DNA of 64,000 nt. Source: Negaprion brevirostris (Eukaryota). Location of the stretch: the NCBI GenBank assembly GCA_030324005.1, contig JARDVH010000137.1:19158863-19222862 (forward strand), written 5' to 3'. A model generated the notes under the pieces. It was given only the letters and a program-made list of their open reading frames with translations, was not told the origin of the DNA and made no database searches. The position numbers and the translations under genes are program-made. The first letter of the stretch is position 1; every line of letters starts with the position of its first letter. Shown here piece by piece: positions 3,000 to 60,088 of the stretch.

Positions 3000-3648
3000 G
3001 AAAATACTGCAGATACTGGAAATCTGAAATAAAACCAAAAAATTCTGGAAGTGCTCAGAAAATCAGGGAGCATTTGTGGCGATGATGTAATGGTATTGTT
3101 CCTATACTAATAATCCAGAGATCCAGGGTAATGCTCTGCAGTCTCGGGTTCAAATACTTCCATGGTAGATAATGAAATTTGACTTCAATAAAAAAAACAA
3201 TTTTAAAAATCTGGAACTAAATGTCTAATGATGACGATTGTCAGAAATACCCATCTGATTCGCTCATGTCCTTGAAGGAAATCTGCCTCCTTACCTGGTC
3301 TGGCCAACATGCGATCCCAGATCCACTGCAATGTGGTTGACTCTTAAAGGCCCTCTGAAATGGCCTAACAAGCCAGTCAGTTCAAGGACAATTGGGGATT
3401 AACAATAAATGCTGATTCAGCCAACGATACTCACATCCCATGAATAAATTTTTAAAAACCCTATCATAGACAACCTTCCTCCTTCTAATGGCTCAAAACC
3501 ATTTCCATCTTTATTTATTTATTTCTAATGAATGCTCATCTCAATCTGAAATGTCAGTTTTGATTCTCTCCACGGATACTCCTTGATTTTGAGTCTTTCC
3601 AGCAATTTTTGATTTTATTTTAGATTTCTAGTTATCGGTAATATTTTA
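3000..3648. mobile_element. Non-autonomous Penelope-derived inverted-repeat element (arms 3000-3078 and about 3565-3648)
   Basis: Left arm aaaatactgcagatactggaaatctgaaataaaacc is a diverged reverse complement of the right arm gattttattttagatttctagttatcggtaatatttt; decayed hammerhead-like core at 3525-3555. Confidence 0.65.
3080..3455 (+). mobile_element. tRNA-derived shark SINE with CR1-like 3' tail
   Basis: B-box-like gggttcaaat, body ggaaatctgcctccttacctggtctggcc, tail caataaatgctg...cacatcccatgaataaa shared with the LINE at 6693 and 46810; other copies at 48680 and 51045. Confidence 0.75.
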
Positions 3649-22172: not shown

Positions 22173-22267
22173 AACAAAAACAGAAAATGCTGGAAAAACA
22201 CTGGTCAGACCTGCTGAGATTTTCCAGCATTTTCTGTTTTTGTTTCAGATTCTGGTATTTTGCTTTT
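22173..22267. repeat. Internally deleted Penelope-derived palindrome; perfect 25-bp inverted repeat
   Basis: aacaaaaacagaaaatgctggaaaa (22173-22197) and ttttccagcattttctgtttttgtt (22220-22244). Confidence 0.85.
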
Positions 22268-43439: not shown

Positions 43440-44130
43440 TCCATACTGGACTTCATTCCTGCCTCAGCTCTTCTGCTGCTATAATCTTCATCCATGCAAC
43501 TGTTGATTATTCCAATGTACTCCTGGGCATGCATTCTAACCTCCATAAACTTCAGAGGATCTGCTGTCCATGTCCTAACTTGCACCAAGTCCCATTCACC
43601 CATCACCCCAATGGTCATTGATCTATATTGACTTTCAATTAAATTTATTTTAAAATTTTCATCCTAGTTTTCAAATTTCTCCATGACCTGTAAAGTTCTC
43701 CAAATGTACAACTTTCCGAAATACCTGCTCTCCTCTAATTCCAGCCTGTGGAACATCCCTGATTTTAATTGCACCTCCATTGGCTGCAGGCCTTTCATAT
43801 GTCTATGGCCTAAGGTCTGGAATTTCCTCCCTAAATCTACCTCATGTTCCTCCTTGAAACCTACCACTTCAACAAAATTATTAGTAAAAAATAAAAACAA
43901 ATTACTGCAGATGCTGGAATCTGAAACAATGACAGAAAATGCAGGAAAATCTCAGTATGTCTGACAGTATCTGTGGAGTCACAGCCAAGCTAACATTTCA
44001 AGTCTGGATGATTCTTTGTCAGAGCTAAACCATCTGCCCTAATACTTCCTTTTGCTGATCAGTGTCTTATTTTGCTTTATAATGTCTCTAAGTGCCTTGG
44101 GGTATCTTATTGTGTTAAAGGTGCTATTTA
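43440..44130 (+). mobile_element. L2-type LINE 3' end, interrupted by a Penelope-derived element
   Basis: caagtcccattcacccatcacccc, ggcctaaggtctggaatttcctccctaaatc, tail gtgttaaaggtgctatt. Confidence 0.7.
43885..44028 (-). mobile_element. Penelope-derived element arm with a degenerate hammerhead (43988-44026)
   Basis: Minus strand reads AGCU CUGACAA AGAAUC AUCCA GACUU GAAAU GUU AGCU; arm homologous to 3000, 22173 and 56260. Confidence 0.7.
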
Positions 44131-51415: not shown

Positions 51416-52803
51416 TCCCCATGCAAATTAGCAGATATAATCTAGTGTAATATTATGTATGTTACTGGAAGTCAATAATGAGTTACAAGATCAATATATA
51501 CTCAAATAGTTCTGAAAACATCAGCAAACTTTAACAGAAATTTGGGTTGGAATTACTTCTTCAACATCACAACCAACTATTTGTTAGTAAACACAATTTT
51601 ATAATTCATATTAAATTTAATATCAAATGAGAGGTTCAGTTGTCCCAAGTCCTGATGACAGAACCTGAAGGCAACTGAGATTATGTACAGATACTAAACC
51701 AGTACAAAGTTTATCCTACCTCCACACACATCAGATTACCAGTAATTAAATAATTAAAGTCATTTTAAAACTTTAACACAGTCTCAGGGCTTCAATGACA
51801 CTGGGAAGTGTACCAATAAAACTTAAATACTGCAATCGTTACATAATCAGAGCCTAAAGGTTAAGTTACTAGCTGTTAATACACTTTAACTCATACAACT
51901 TCACATTTAGTTGCAAGTGTAAGTTATCTCATTTGATGTTCTTGGGCGATTGTACCACCTGGGTTTGTTGTCATGAAAATTCTCCTGTTAAAAAAATACA
52001 TATTCTTTTAAAAGGTGTTGCGATTGCGATTCCTTTCAGCGGTACTTGTGACCATCTGAGAAAATGATCTGATAATGAAAGAAAATAAGAGGCAGATTTG
52101 TGTGATTGTGTGTCAGTTTCATTTGTTGCAATGTGATGACTAGTTTTTTTAACTATTAATCAAAAGATTCTTCTTAAACTGACAAAGTAAAGGCTCATAA
52201 TAGAGTAGTGTCCAAGGAGTGTAACAAATAAGAAAGAATGCAAGATATGTCCAGCATAATTTTTATTCCACCTGACCCTAGCAGTCACCAAATGTGTAGC
52301 TCAGTGGGAAACTCTAGGTTTGATCACCAATCTGTGCTGATTTGATAATCTCAACCTTGCCAGCACAACAATTGCTGTAAAAAAGTACTCCAGGGTTAGG
52401 GAATGAGAAATTAGTCAGAGTTTCTGTTCCAGGTTGTTATCTTGGAATTCCTGTCCAGGTTGCGAGCTTATGAATATTGAATGATGAAGACATCAGGTTT
52501 TGTCCCATTCTCAGAAAGATGGCCATCNNNNNNNNNNACGTCAAGATTTACATCTGAATATTAGTCAGCAGATGAGGTTCTGGAGGGTGACTGGTCTGAA
52601 AGGTGACATTGCCCCTCCATTATTCCTGAGCCTTTTCCATGCCCTATGTCTCCTCCAGCACCTTCCTACCACTAATTAACTAAGGACGATGCCACAAAAT
52701 ATCCATCGGTATTATATGATCATATGTTTTCTTGACTTTGCTACAAAAATGAACTTAATGATCTAATAAGATCTATATATAAAATTGTGATTTCTTACAA
52801 TAC

Positions 52804-52873
52804 TCACAGTAATTTCATCACAGTGTGAAAGTAAGCCTACTTGTGACTAATAAATAATTTTAACTTTTACTTT
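52804..52873 (+). mobile_element. SINE 3' tail fragment
   Basis: gtaagcctacttgtgactaataaataattttaactttt. Confidence 0.7.
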
Positions 52874-52898
52874 AGACTGGTATCATCTGCAATATTCA

Positions 52899-53203
52899 TC
52901 GTAGAATCCCTAAGTGCAGAAGGAGGACATCTGGCCCATTGTGTCTGCACCAACCACAATCCGGGGCCCTATCCCCATAACCCCAAGTATTTGTCCTGCT
53001 AATCCCCCTGGCACTTAAAGCTGATCATGGCCAATCCACCTAACCTGCATATCTTTGGAGTGTGGGAGGAAACCGCAGCACTCAGAGGACACCCACACAG
53101 ACATGGAGAGAGCATAGAACTCCACACAGTCACCTGAAGCCAGAATTGAACCCAGGTCCCTGGTGCTGTGACGCAGCAATGCTAACCACTGCGCCAGCCT
53201 GCC
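52899..53203 (-). mobile_element. HE1 (V-SINE) with CR1/HER1 tail
   Basis: tRNA-like head, V domain (ccaatccacctaacctgcatatctttggagtgtgggaggaaacc), tail agaatccctaagtgcagaaggagg. Confidence 0.85.
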
Positions 53204-53219
53204 ATCCTGTAGGTTCCAG

Positions 53220-53348
53220 GTCAGGTGATGAAGGCCATTGACTTGGAACCTTACCTCTGTTTTTCTCTCTCTACAGATGCTGTCAGCCCTGTTGAGCACC
53301 TGTTTTTATTTCAGATTTCCAGGTTCTGCTGTATGTTGCTTTATTTTG
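53220..53348 (+). mobile_element. Penelope-derived element arm, decayed hammerhead core
   Basis: gtgatgaaggccattgacttggaac...ctctctctacagatgctgtcagccctgttgag...tttcagatttccag. Confidence 0.6.
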
Positions 53349-54906
53349 CTCCTCCTCGCATACTTTTCTTTTTGGTCTTTATCGTTCGTTGACAGTTGAA
53401 CTTAGCAGGTACCACATGAAAATACTACTCCACGTCATTTTATCAGCCTAATCACTTCAGTTCATTGTGTGAGAATGGAAATAGCTGAACCGCTAAGCTG
53501 ATGCCACCTCCTTATTAGTTTCTGCTGTTCGCATCTGATGTCATCTGAGCAAGATATTCACTCGAGAATGAAAAAAAGGCATAAAGTGTAATTATTCTGA
53601 TACAAAAACTCTTTATATCAGCTTCCGCATGAGAAAATCTAACAAATGTTCGAGCAACTGAGACATCCAACAAACGTCGAGCATTCAACCCAAGCTACCC
53701 GAACATTAATGGTACCATTAATCCCTAACATAAGGCAAGTAAGCACGTACCCCTTTTGAAATATTTTTAAAAATGAGCTATTTTATGTTTACAATTTCCA
53801 CCTGGGGCTCAGTGTGAAATGCAACTTGAACAGCTTGTTGGCTGTCGGGACTTCATTGACTTCGTTGAATCTTGGATTGTGTGGTCAGTGTTATTCAAGG
53901 TCCAATTTTCCTATCACGTGCCCCGCCCCGCCCCCTTGTCATTTAATCATGCAGAAGTGAAAAAAAGGTTTGTTGAAAAGTGAACTGTGTGTGATTTTAG
54001 CAAAACACTTACCCGCGCCACATAGTGCAAATAATTAGCAAAGTACCTGTGGCCCCCAAATGAACAACCGACCAATTTTACACCGGGTAGAATGGGTAGA
54101 ATAGCGTCTGGGATTTAACGCTTTGTAGCATTGAAGTTTTTATTTCCAAAAAAGATGCGTTCAATCTTTGGACCCCCTTTTCCCCATTTTTCATTACATT
54201 TGGTGGGTTTACGAATGTTCATGGTGATGAGTACTGGTGTCACAGAGTAGGTACATCTCATGATTTTCAGACTAATATTTGGACTCAACTTGTACCCTTG
54301 CCCCTCGAAGGATCCTTCATTCTTCCGTGTATGTTGCAATATATGCGAGAAGAACTGTTCACATGCAAATTATGGATAAAAAAATCCTGTAATTGTTTGT
54401 TAGCATACATCATGCTTTAACCTTGGTTAAAAAGAACTGATTAATGGTATCAAGTCTGATGAATAATCTGAACCCATTCTACTTCTGGTGCAGGGTTGAG
54501 GATGATCCAAAGGACTGCTGTTTACATGGAAAAGGAGTTTGGAAACAAATGGGCGAACGTCAAAGGCTGGAGGCCATTGATATTTAGTATGTCAGCCTCT
54601 CGTTCCTGTNNNNNNNNNNNNNNNNNNNNNNNNNNNNNNNNNNNNNNNNNNNNNNNNNNNNNNNNNNNNNNNNNNNNNNNNNNNNNNNNNNNNNNNNNNN
54701 NNNNNNNNNNNNNNNNNNNNNNNNNNNNNNNNNNNNNNNNNNNNNNNNNNNNNNNNNNNNNNNNNNNNNNNNNNNNNNNNNNNNNNNNNNNNNNNNNNNN
54801 NNNNNNNNNNNNNNNNNNNNNNNNNNNNNNNNNNNNNNNNNNNNNNNNNNNNNNNNNNNNNNNNNNNNNNNNNNNNNNNNNNNNNNNNNNNNNNNNNNNN
54901 NNNNNN

Positions 54907-55001
54907 CCCACATACACAAAACCACCCCTACCCCAAACACACACTCACCAACAGAACCACCCTGCCCCAAACACACACTCACTAACAGAATCACCGTGCA
55001 C

Positions 55002-55032
<31 letters not shown>

Positions 55033-55203
55033 CCCCCCCCTCCTTGTTCCAAACACCCACTAACACATACAACCACCCTGCCCCACACTCGCACACACAT
55101 CCTACCCTGCCTCAAACACACACACTCACACACATACACAACACCCACTCCCTGCCGCAAACACCCCCACACACACAGGATCAGCCTGCCCCAAACACCC
55201 ACA
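54907..55203. repeat. CA-rich low-complexity or minisatellite region (unit about caccctgccccaaacacacac) with (CA)n
   Basis: Direct reading; next to a 297-N gap. Confidence 0.85.
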
Positions 55204-55939
55204 ATGTACCAGTGGGCTGGGGATACAGCCGGGGTTGTGTGACACTGTGCTATGTGTGGGTGAGGCTGGGGAGCTCTATATCGGGGCGGGGCGGGGCGGA
55301 ATTCTACTTTCCACCGACAGTGGCCCCAGAAAGAGCCCGATATGCTCCCGGCGGTGGTGCCGGAGCCCGGGCTGTGATCTGACGCAAATGGAAAATGTCT
55401 TCAGAGCTTAAAGAGGAATAATGTGCGTCAATGTCTGGTCTCATGCGAGCAGCACGGGCCACACCGAGCATAAGTAAGCCATTATTATAGATGGGTGCGC
55501 CGTCTGATGTTGAGTCAGAACTTGCTGCTGAATTTGAACACTCTGAAATGAACGTTGTAAATAAAATCATGGCAACAATAGCATGTATTGATAAAAAAAA
55601 GAGCACATGGGGGTGTAGAATGAGTGAGACACTATTTTCGGATATCAAACGTGAATAATTCCAAAAGAAAGAGAGAGAGAACTGTTGAAACCAAATATTC
55701 TAGGATGTTGTGGAGTGAAATTTGAAATTCAGAATAGGTATGTTCTCTCTGTCTGCTTTAATTTGGCTAAAGGTTTAATTCGAAACGACAGGGAGAGGGT
55801 TTAAACTCGGCGAGGTGAACGAAATTTGCCTATGTCAGCGAGTGCACGGACCGGGCCAAGTCTGCTTTGACCTATGTGGACATACGGTATGGTGGGTGTG
55901 TAAATTGGGAATTGGTGTTTCAGAGACCTCCCCCCCCCC

Positions 55940-56056
55940 TTCCCCGCCCCTCAGTGCTAAGCCGCTAACTCTCTGCCGGAGATCAGAGAGATTGGCATCT
56001 GTACGCGGCTGACTGTTACTATAAATACACCACATTACAGCAACTGCGTCAGTCAA
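55940..56056 (+). promoter_or_regulatory. Candidate Pol II core promoter (GC box, CCAAT, TATA, Inr)
   Basis: ccccgcccc 55942-55950, ATTGG 55991-55995, TATAAAT 56020-56026, TCAGTC 56049-56054 (A at 56051 lies 31 nt after the first T of TATA). Confidence 0.45.
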
Positions 56057-56259
56057 TGCTGTGCACGAACAGCCAATAACACATTTCCACGNNNNNNNNN
56101 NNNNNNNNNNNNNNNNNNNNNNNNNNNNNNNNNNNNNNNNNNNNNNNNNNNNNNNNNNNNNNNNNNNNNNNNNNNNNNNNNNNNNNNNNNNNNNNNNNNN
56201 NNNNNNNNNNNNNNNNNNNAAACACTTTCTTCATAACGAGATCAAAGAGAATGAAGCTT

Positions 56260-56382
56260 AAAGACAACAACGCTGGAAAATCTCAACAGGTCTGGCAGCA
56301 TCTGTAAGGAGAGAAGAGAGCTGACGTTTCAAGTCCAGGTGACCCTTTGTCAAAGCTAAAAGGCATAGAAAGTGGGAGATAG
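56260..56382 (-). mobile_element. Penelope-derived element arm carrying a minimal hammerhead motif (56319-56357)
   Basis: Minus strand reads AGCU UUGACAA A GGGUC ACCUG GACUU GAAAC GUC AGCU. Confidence 0.75.
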
Positions 56383-58127
56383 AGAATGAAGCTTTATTCC
56401 TGCCGCCATCTGATCTGACAGAAGCCGGGTGCAACTGTCCTTTCCCCAGAACCAAACTGTTGCTCCTGAGATTTCTGTTCACTGCCACCTCGGGGGGGGG
56501 GGGGGGGGNNNNNNNNNNCACTGAAACCTCACCCCCCCCCACCCCCATCCCATTCTCTCTTTTCCAATAAACCGATCAGGGAAATCCAGCCTCCACCCTC
56601 TGTATCCCTGAAGCTGCCTTCAAGGAAGAGGCTTCGTTAAAACAGCTCACTCCAATGTTACATGGAGTAATCTGGGGTTGGCTGCTGGAGATAATGAACT
56701 ACATTAAAGAATCCGGATCTGGGATGCAACAATGGAAGTGTTGTCCCGAGATTAATCTTTGAGAAGTCAGACCTAAAATCGGCCGATTTATTTGAAGAAT
56801 GTTACATTTGCATCCACGTGGGTTATCGTCAGATATCACAGCGGCTCCCAACCCAACATCTTGTGAACTGAGGTCTGGCGACGCAGCTGCAACCATACAG
56901 CTGCTCATGTGCGCTGAGAAAGTCTATTCTCGGCGTGTTTCACTCTGACTGGTATCCATAGGGGCTTGCAGGGGGGACGGGGCGAAGTTTGAGTTCAGTG
57001 CAATGTTACCGAGATGTCGCCTTGAACTGCAAATCCAACATGAGGTGTGTATTGTGTTGGGTATTTGCATTGGACCCAGTGAGGGATGGACAAGATGCTA
57101 TTTGCTCCGGTGAGAATGCTGGTTCGACAGTCTGCCTGGTTCAATGCTGGTTGAACCTTCTCCTCGAAGCTGTAATTCAGAGACCTGAGATTCCCTTTTA
57201 ATCCATTCTCAAAGATAAGAAACTGGATTCACTTTAGAAACCCAAATGCACCTGTAAATCCGTTCCCAATGTCCATAAGGTTAAGCCATGATGTGGAGAT
57301 GCAGGCGTTGGACTGGGTGGGCACAGTAAGAAGTCTCTGGTGTTGTGAGACTTCTTAACATAAGGTTACGTTATAGGTCAATAATTCTAAGTCTATTGAC
57401 AGGATTACAACACTTGAGAAATATAACTGCATTTCCATCGATCAACCTAGGAACTGTCCCCAATTGATCGTTGTTGGAGAGAATAGCTACAGTTTCACAA
57501 ACAGACTGTAAAATAGCCGTATTCCCAAAGGGACAACTGCAATAAGGGTTGGGACTACCTTTAGGGTTCTGAATTAGCCACATCGGTTTAGGTTTTCGAA
57601 TAATACTTCATAAAAGATACCGTCAGATCAAAGGGGACAGAAAGAAACTTAAATGAGGATGTGAAATGGAGGCACCAGTTGCTGTGCAGATGGTGTTGGG
57701 GAGGTCCCAAGAACTGCGGCGTTTCCGGTTTAACTCACGATGCAAGGAGATTTTAACCGAAAGTGCACGCAGGCTGGAGTCAGTGCCTGGGCTGCCTCGG
57801 AGTGTGCTGGGGTGCGGGGAGGGGGACACTGTCACATTCTAAACCAGCAGGGACTTGCAGTTTTGCAAACGATCCTTTGTTAGTATCTCCACATTTAGAA
57901 CAAAAATGTTGAGGTTTGTGCAGAATGCAAATAAGCATTAAGCCCTGCTCGGTCAACAGCCCAGCTGAGGAGCTTGGAAATGTTTCTCAGTGATAGAGAA
58001 TCCGTGACACTAGACCAAAATGGCGGATATTGAAAGTTAAATATAATCAAATCCTTCGGTGCTGACATTAGACACAACTGGTGTCCCGATGCTTAGGTCA
58101 AGATTTGACATACATTGAACTTGTTCT

Positions 58128-58420
58128 GTTTTTTAACTCACTGGTGGGATGTGAGAATCGCTGGTAAGACCAGCATTTATTGCCCATCCCTAATTGCCCT
58201 TCAGAAGGTGGTGGTGAGCTGCCTTCTTGAACCGCTGCAATCCATGTGGTGTACATAGACTCACAGTGCCATTGACCCACCCACCATGAAGAAATGGCGA
58301 TATATTTCCTGTCGTGCGCCTTGAAGGAGAATTTGCAGGTGGTGGCGTTCTTGCTGCCCTTGACGTTCCAAGTGGGAGAGCTCAGGGTTTGGGAGGTCTT
58401 GTGGAGGAAGCTTTGTCAAG
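58128..58420 (-). mobile_element. CR1-type LINE 3' end
   Basis: Same text as 6693-7000 (cagcatttattgcccatccctaattgcccttcagaaggtggtggtgagctgccttcttgaac). Confidence 0.8.
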
Positions 58421-59934
58421 AAGACTCCTTGTGTACAAGTGAATTTGAGCAAGCTCGCCTCCTTCTGCAGATGTTAATATAAATAAAGTGTCTCCCTTAA
58501 CATCAGAGTCTTAATACTGGAAAGGACAGGCAGTAGAAGATTGAAATTCACTGCACAAGAAACTCAGCTCTCCCCATGTTCACGTCAAAATGTTTTTAAA
58601 AAGTAATTGTCAGACAATACTGCCAATTATAGCCCAGATTTCACGGAGAAAATCGTGTCTGCGCCCAGGCACATTTTAAGAATCGCGTCTATCGCTAATC
58701 TTTTAATTAAAACAAATGCATCCAGAAGCCATTTGTTGAAGAAAATTAGCATACTACCTCTGCTTAATTGCCCAGTGTGTTGTGCATCATGTATTATTTT
58801 TACGATCAGAACTGGACACGTATTGATTAGTAATCAATATCTTTTAAATCCTAATCATGGACTTTATTCCCCATGATGTGCCAGTGATGCACATTGCATG
58901 GTAAATGCGAATGATCCTTTTTTTCCCTCTGATTTACACTTTTCATTTTTATTGTGCCACTAGGGCCCTTTAGCTATTTAATAATGTTGACAAATGTCAA
59001 GTATACATATTTTCAACCACCGTATTAATCAAGCGTACAGATGATGATTTACAATGAGCGCGTCGAGAGAACAAGGGGAAAAAAGACTCAGATATCAACA
59101 ACTGTCTGCCAGGAAATGATTGTTGATTGCAAATGGAGAAGAGTTTCGTTGTTAAGGTCAAACCGCTCAACCACAGCGAGGGGCAGGTGGCTCGCTGTTT
59201 GATCTGTGTTAGTAAAATTAACGTGAACTCTGAGGACTGGGGTCGAAAATGAAGGAAACTGCTGATCAAGGTGGCACGCGGTCTGAAAGGGCAGAAGGCT
59301 GAATTTGAGGGTTAAGGTCTATAACCTTCAGCATTTACAGAAGAATTTGCTACACTATTGATTAGTTGCAAAATGGCCATGAACTAAGCAACAGACATGG
59401 CTATTGGTAGGTTGCTATAGCACCTATCTCCCATTGATTTATTGAAAACCTCTGTTTTGTCGATTTCAATGCTAATAACACGACTGCAGTTGACTTGAAC
59501 AAAAGAATACCCCCTCGCAAACTAAATGCATGAGAATCGGTATTTCCAATCACCTTGGCAAACTATATTGTTAGGCAATTGAACGATGGACTTCTGAGCA
59601 AAACCGATTCCTGCGGCAAAGGCGTTCACCATGAAGTCCTGTTTCATTTATTCGGTGGAGATCGCAACACTTCGTCAGCTTGTGATTTTCCTTGTAGTCC
59701 TACCTGCAGTAGGATGGTTGCATAGCTGACCCCAGGGAGGACAGTTTTGACCGGTGCTCTACCGAGAACTCAGCTGAAGATTAGTCACTCAAATCACAAA
59801 ATAAACTCAAGTCATTTGGATTAAAAGTCAGCAGTTGTCCCCGAGTGTTCTTAGCCACTGCGATACTACGCCCTTCCCGCCCCCTCAAATCTCTTTTGCA
59901 GGTGTCGGGTGGATGAATATCGGTGTACGGTCAA

Positions 59935-60088
59935 AAAGTCCGAAAAACGTGCTACTTAGGTGCATTGTCTATGCTAAATTCTCCCTTAGTGTACCCCGAC
60001 AGGCGCCGGAGTGTGGCGACTAGGGTATTTTCGCAATAGCTTCATTGCAGTGTTAATGTAAGCCTACTTGTGACACTAATTTCAAAAA
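59935..60088 (+). mobile_element. V-SINE/HE1-like SINE, 3' part
   Basis: caggcgccggagtgtggcgactaggg...gtaagcctacttgtgacactaa. Confidence 0.8.

Follow-up and report, generated by a model that had tools for sequence, protein, structure and literature searches.

The hammerhead motif and its carrier insertion

In the window, the 64,000-nucleotide stretch of Negaprion brevirostris DNA analysed here, the minus strand at 56319..56357 carries a minimal type I hammerhead motif of 39 bases, recognised by reading the strand and from genome-wide counts. It comprises a U3-A8 core, an extra A, a 5-bp stem II, a palindromic 4-nt helix III stub and C17. The anatomy proposed in an earlier note was confirmed: from 56357 to 56319 the minus strand reads AGCU-UUGACAA-A-GGGUC(ACCUG)GACUU-GAAAC-GUC-AGCU. 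Stem I is formed by 56357-56354 and 56322-56319, stem II by 56345-56341 and 56335-56331. Core positions U3, A8, G12 and C17 correspond to 56353, 56348, 56330 and 56323, respectively, the extra A (between 9 and 10.1) lies at 56346, the palindromic 15.1-16.1 segment occupies 56327-56324, and cleavage is predicted between 56323 and 56322. The Watson-Crick 3-8 pair, G12-A13-A14-A15.1, U16.1-H17, stems I and II, the extra nucleotide before 10.1 and the palindromic 15.2-16.2 are all present. Together with the location of the motif in the end repeat (pLTR) of a Penelope-like element (PLE), this supports the class assigned in that note, a PLE-type minimal type I hammerhead.

A general minimal-hammerhead pattern had 8584 matches in the 2.69-Gb genome and its reversed control 145, whereas a subfamily-specific pattern had 709 matches and its reversed control none; the motif is therefore not a chance occurrence. 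An Rfam scan of 52000-60000 returned no hammerhead model at E<=10. The isolated 39-mer folded no better than shuffled sequences (z -0.22), and in its best fold the core is paired with the cleavage triplet (-8.1 kcal/mol vs -6.6 for the hammerhead fold). The predicted self-duplex of helix III amounts to only -3.1 kcal/mol.

Copies of the family were sampled by a 30-base anchor located downstream of the cleavage site, a choice blind to the core; the first 91 of its 2422 matches are referred to below as the anchor set. The window copy differs from the subfamily majority in one loop base and at 11.1, where the closing pair of stem II (10.1-11.1) is G.U instead of the majority G-C (C at 11.1 in 55/76 subfamily copies of the anchor set). 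The G10.1.U11.1 form is predicted to be weaker than the subfamily form.

The motif is carried by a 5'-truncated PLE end repeat of 121 bp (56260..56380, minus strand), which belongs to subfamily A (see below) and extends from -23 to +97, if the first base of stem I (56357) is taken as coordinate 0 and the cleavage site as +35. Identical 14-bp target-site duplications flank it at 56381..56394 on the 5' side and at 56246..56259 on the 3' side. Upstream of the motif a pyrimidine-rich spacer (56358..56380, minus) separates the position of the family's TATA box, located at -30 and cut off in this copy, from the putative transcription start at 56357. The sequence downstream of the hammerhead (56260..56318, minus) ends at the first of two clusters of 3' ends seen in the family, near +100 and +136, about 35 nt apart.

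Sixty related loci share from 1 to >1400 nt of upstream sequence, and copy length varies continuously between about 100 bp and the roughly 3.3 kb of ORF-bearing units. In these units the ORF is flanked on both sides by the repeat with its motif, the two motifs lying about 3.3 kb from each other. The long copies are frameshifted; their translations contain readable motifs that we take to be those of a reverse transcriptase (RT) and of a GIY-YIG-type domain. Among 12 ORF fragments searched against Pfam, two matched RVT_1 at E 9e-5, below the cut-off of that family, and none matched a GIY-YIG family; HTH_animal and GIY-YIG are present among the Atlas neighbours. By eye, the ORF appears to begin about 180 nt after stem I, and inspection of the ORF-bearing copies led us to consider a possible splice acceptor just after the hammerhead, with a short intron before the ORF. 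Inverted 5' arms were found in 26/82 anchor-set copies. The related copies display 5' truncation, partial tandems, inverted 5' arms and an optional 30-40-bp tail, all of which are listed as features of endonuclease-bearing PLEs (PMC8557442), and two neighbouring 3' ends are described as a PLE tail trait (PMC11167929, PMC8557442). Because its relatives are continuous with the RT and GIY-YIG-type ORF and show these features, the window copy is best regarded as a truncated PLE end and not as a separate short element.

The insertion is likely inactive. A single unit stands between the target-site duplications, and no dimer partner is evident: the closest relative detected on this strand of the window (at 44026) has decayed (the sequence has gaps at 56092-56219 and 56509-56518). 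That relative belongs to a subfamily-B copy (43917-44029, minus) with C3-A8, likely a product of CpG decay, and a broken palindrome. Further decayed or tail-only PLE-end fragments were noted at 53223-53337 (+), 22204-22252 (+), 3001-3037 (-) and about 3526 (+), the one at 22204 with a short inverted arm. Beside the element, the relatively CpG-rich segment 55250-56090 may represent a promoter region or else a further repeat; CCAAT-, TATA- and CRE/AP-1-like words were seen by eye near 55990-56080, and a 131-aa stop-free frame (55304-55699, minus) gave no convincing Pfam match.

Subfamilies, the 3-8 pair and the decay of inserted copies

The earlier note regarded U3-A8 as a trait of a subfamily and not as decay of the window copy, and the copy counts bear this out. 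Fifty-five anchor-set copies reach position 3: 45 have U3-A8, three U3-G8, one C3-A8, one C3-G8, and five are gapped or carry other states. U3-A8 was also counted by eye in 95/100 of the first 100 of the 709 subfamily-pattern matches. Decay of a CpG in single copies was ruled out as the origin of A8: position 8 is G in just 4/55 copies, whereas the CpG at G12 is split between G (37) and A (30) in 76 anchor-set copies. A8 was thus already present in the parent.

For subfamily assignment 453 distinct copies were pooled from all loci, a pool enriched for subfamily A by the queries used. Core to tail is covered in 314 of them, and the 282 with enough tail were clustered on downstream columns only. 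Three clusters were obtained, A (n=197, U3-A8), B (n=58, C3) and C (n=27, mostly C3-A7-G8), and the core states follow the clusters. The core type of B is C3-C7-G8; its 7-8 states include C7G8 in 20, U7G8 in 16 and C7A8 in 13 of the 58 copies, and the C3-A8 copies of this subfamily, that at 44026 included, are accounted for by CpG decay. Non-CpG divergence is 6.3% in A, 9.2% in B and 14.6% in C, an order of ages that is biased by the retrieval of many A copies by similarity. Since its divergence is the lowest, A is likely the youngest and U3-A8 the derived state; B and C are likely older sister subfamilies.

Five hammerhead positions distinguish the majority of A from that of B (3, 8, loop 2, 17 and 1.1), and both majorities fit a hammerhead descriptor, which was written after both majorities were known. 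With five random changes the fit was kept in 0.8-2.3% of trials (300,000 trials per setting), and it was kept with both 3 and 8 hit in 0.05-0.2%. The differences suggest selection on the fold of the parent element, on the strength of one event (n=1).

Two candidates raised by single loci were searched for. A U3-G8 intermediate subfamily, hinted at by L204 and L240, was not found (0/41 matches), nor was a second U3-A8 lineage in subfamily C, hinted at by L109. By eye, 41 of the 53 subfamily-C copies are C3-G8, six C3-A8, five U3-G8 and one U3-A8, and about 0.8 doubles are expected by chance. Positions 3 and 8 mutate independently within this subfamily. Covariation as a repeated signal, which the earlier note had envisaged, was therefore not borne out: there is one compensatory event.

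At L140 (G000:C1:21143683-21143715) the hammerhead is of another minimal family: stem II is longer, the bases are C3-G8 and C17, and a TATA-like motif upstream is spaced about as in the present family. At L136 (G000:C1:20354720-20355590) a hammerhead-bearing copy is followed within about 20 nt by a hammerhead-like repeat of a different family. A single subfamily-B copy (L067:3745-3777, minus) has a double change in stem II from G.U to C-G, which may be due to chance. L066 (G000:C31:76515500-76520500) contains two subfamily-A copies, 98% identical and equally oriented, whose separation of 1 kb includes a gap of 100 N, with two more fragments besides, possibly an assembly duplication. In contigs of organism D (run X8) about 95% of the depth at window position 56323 has U, not C, at position 17. 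The dominant subfamily thus differs between organisms.

Once inserted, the copies decay at about the rate of their flanks, with no sign of selection on individual copies. Mismatches at conserved non-CpG positions of the anchor set amount to 40/520 (7.7%) in the core and 138/1446 (9.5%) in the flank (P 0.25). The core is intact in 14/55 copies, the palindrome being kept as well in 4/55, and the window copy has lost the G10.1-C11.1 pair. Of the selection on self-cleavage suggested in the earlier note, the part that concerns the parent is favoured by the differences between subfamilies, while constraint on inserted copies is not visible.

The U3-A8 pair and the fold might also serve a structural or protein-binding role, or reflect drift in a ribozyme no longer needing to cut, so that cleavage would not be under selection. 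The copies described here contain sequence upstream of the cut site, and the best fold of the monomer sequesters the core. In a study of an anole PLE, mutating the hammerhead left in vitro insertion unaffected, and none of the RNA-seq reads started or stopped at the cut site (PMC11167929); Naiad PLEs are described as thriving without canonical hammerheads (PMC8557442). However, the anole motif was cleaved after addition of protein (PMC11167929), U3-A8 hammerheads are active in vitro according to earlier work cited in PMC3088659, and the 3-8 pair is a feature of the active-state core (PMC3884650), the restoration of which is what selection on catalysis would predict. We consider a non-catalytic role improbable.

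The 5' ends of the copies

Ends were mapped in 82 anchor-set copies, after removal of nine with a gap in the flank from the first 91 of 2422 matches. In 27 of them, or 27/55 of those reaching stem I, the 5' end falls within 0..+4. Per exposed position this corresponds to 27/243, compared with 27/2823 in +5..+44 and 25/2879 upstream. No excess was found around the cleavage site, where the ends are at background rate (4/386). Three of the nine ORF-bearing copies reaching stem I begin at 0 and six run on upstream. Contigs of four other runs, one possibly from the source sample, have 159-251 loose ends with unrelated flanks at 56357.

An exact match to TATA starts within -33..-28 in 44/178 copies of subfamily A, 5/52 of B and 3/25 of C. 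At the other 75 offsets it occurs 8, 3 and 1 times, respectively. In most copies element sequence is missing from that upstream region. The -30/-31 spacing is kept in the three subfamilies despite diverged spacers. The ribozyme is likely the 5' end of the element RNA, which would mostly be copied uncut, and the simplest reading of these DNA ends is that transcription starts at stem I and that reverse transcription runs off the uncut RNA.

The accumulation of ends at stem I could instead result from fold-back, a polymerase stop or an endonuclease cut at the palindromic 5' strand. An inverted arm is present on 16 of the 27 ends at 0..+4, the palindromic stem I blurring their junctions, and junction palindromes and self-priming have been described for PLEs (PMC3846280). 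Against this, the non-inverted copies alone also pile up in 0..+4 (11/175 positions vs 18/1950, P 8e-6), their flanks being unrelated (mean identity 0.25), and the TATA spacing is conserved in three subfamilies with diverged spacers. We regard an origin at the palindrome as unlikely, though with enough in its favour to be weighed seriously, and prefer a transcription start at stem I. Our literature search found no paper tying the PLE transcription start to the hammerhead. A TATA box in a pLTR is in itself not new, since a putative TATA and initiator have been published for a rotifer pLTR (PMC3846280). The Penelope element of D. virilis differs in this respect from subfamilies A, B and C with their TATA at -30: a TATA-less internal promoter was reported for it (PMC2377424).

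The same ends bear on the proposal of the earlier note that the insertion is a non-autonomous, retrozyme-like element, propagating itself by self-cleavage and circular RNA, with the ribozyme under selection in the short copies. There are indeed many short copies whose ends are fairly fixed, a third of the mapped copies beginning at 0..+4 and nearly all ending near +100 or +136. A preprint derives animal retrozymes from PLE pLTRs (10.64898/2026.07.22.740005), and non-LTR retrozymes resemble the window copy in that a short non-coding repeat, akin to such pLTRs, harbours a type I hammerhead (PMC7229834; 10.64898/2026.07.22.740005). As described there, retrozymes consist of units repeated in tandem, head to tail, every unit having its hammerhead, whereas the window copy is the solo truncated end of an ORF-bearing element; no head-to-tail units were found at it, and the fetched loci are dispersed singles or inverted pairs. 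The sequence of the short copies passes without a break into that of the ORF-bearing copies, which reach about 3.3 kb; core and flank decay alike, with few cores intact and without visible constraint after insertion; and no 5'-end excess occurs at the cleavage site. These observations largely refute the proposal, which we consider very improbable.

Known hammerheads and the role of the motif

Natural covariation from C3-G8 to U3-A8 has been reported, with several examples active in vitro (Perreault et al. 2011, PMC3088659). The compensatory 3-8 change is the same as here; in the text consulted those examples were not placed in Penelope elements, unlike the motif of the window. About 1,300 minimal hammerheads with U3-A8, related to Cercyon PLEs of Schistosoma, were described subsequently (Cervera and De la Pena 2014, PMC4209133), with low cleavage by dimers and none by a monomer, and U3-A8 is accepted there as a core variant of PLE minimal hammerheads. 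The novelty of the pair implied in the earlier note is thus not upheld, natural U3-A8 having been reported in 2011 and in PLE minimal hammerheads in 2014. With the Cercyon-type hammerheads of Schistosoma mansoni the motif shares type I topology without helix III, the palindromic 15.2-16.2, a 4-bp stem I, the extra nucleotide between 9 and 10.1, U3-A8, occurrence mostly as single dispersed copies and, in the family majority, G10.1-C11.1 (PMC4209133). Stem II has 5 bp here and 7-8 bp in the schistosome families (PMC4209133). Because host and lineage differ from those of schistosome Cercyon, and because C3-G8 sister subfamilies share the genome, U3-A8 likely arose independently here. The searched part of the PMC4209133 supplement contains no shark term, and our literature search, whose coverage of relevant work was incomplete, found no paper on shark PLE hammerheads.

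A further parallel is PAc, the Poseidon PLE of Anolis (Frangieh et al. 2024, PMC11167929), whose hammerhead cleaved only with protein and was partly rescued by a 3-8 swap. PAc and the element described here both have an ORF with a C-terminal GIY-YIG-type motif, a hammerhead at the pLTR-ORF junction and two neighbouring 3' ends corresponding to an optional tail, and in neither, as far as the consulted part of that study goes, do ends occur at the cleavage site. They differ in that PAc has C3-G8 and an ORF starting inside stem II.

Taken together, the motif is in all probability the minimal hammerhead of a Penelope-like retrotransposon in a short 5'-truncated and likely inactive insertion, its U3-A8 pair being fixed in the subfamily, having likely arisen once in the parent and being predicted to keep self-cleavage as a dimer or with the help of protein. 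G8 would have changed to A by a CpG-type transition and C3 to U with restoration of the pair, no order of the two being implied, and the target of selection would have been the autonomous element's RNA and not the inserted copies.

The role of PLE hammerheads is described as unclear (PMC8557442). A tentative proposal, which we hold with less assurance than the identity of the motif, is that the PLE mRNA begins with the hammerhead as its 5'-terminal module. Transcription would be driven by a TATA promoter in the pLTR and set in with the first base of stem I. Reverse transcription, primed about 100 or 136 nt downstream, would run off at the uncut 5' end and yield the thousands of copies of 100-140 bp. 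The window copy, which reaches -23, may stem from a template continuing upstream, e.g. the 3' pLTR. Since the U3-A8 repair suggests that cleavage was kept by selection, it might act as a switch instead of generating the template: cutting could take off the first 35 nt together with the cap or, in concert with the second hammerhead at a distance of 3.3 kb, free a unit-length RNA able to circularise and to yield copies extending upstream of the start.

By sequence, the motif is real and of a published ribozyme kind, with a published core variant, in a PLE fragment that is likely inactive. The published class gains a further natural U3-A8 lineage, and the C3-G8 and U3-A8 sister subfamilies form a natural test set in nearly the same sequence context. 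The compensatory repair in the parent lineage speaks for an importance of catalysis, and the copy ends for RNA that was mostly uncut when copied. If true, a transcription start at stem I would offer a direct experimental handle on what PLE hammerheads do.
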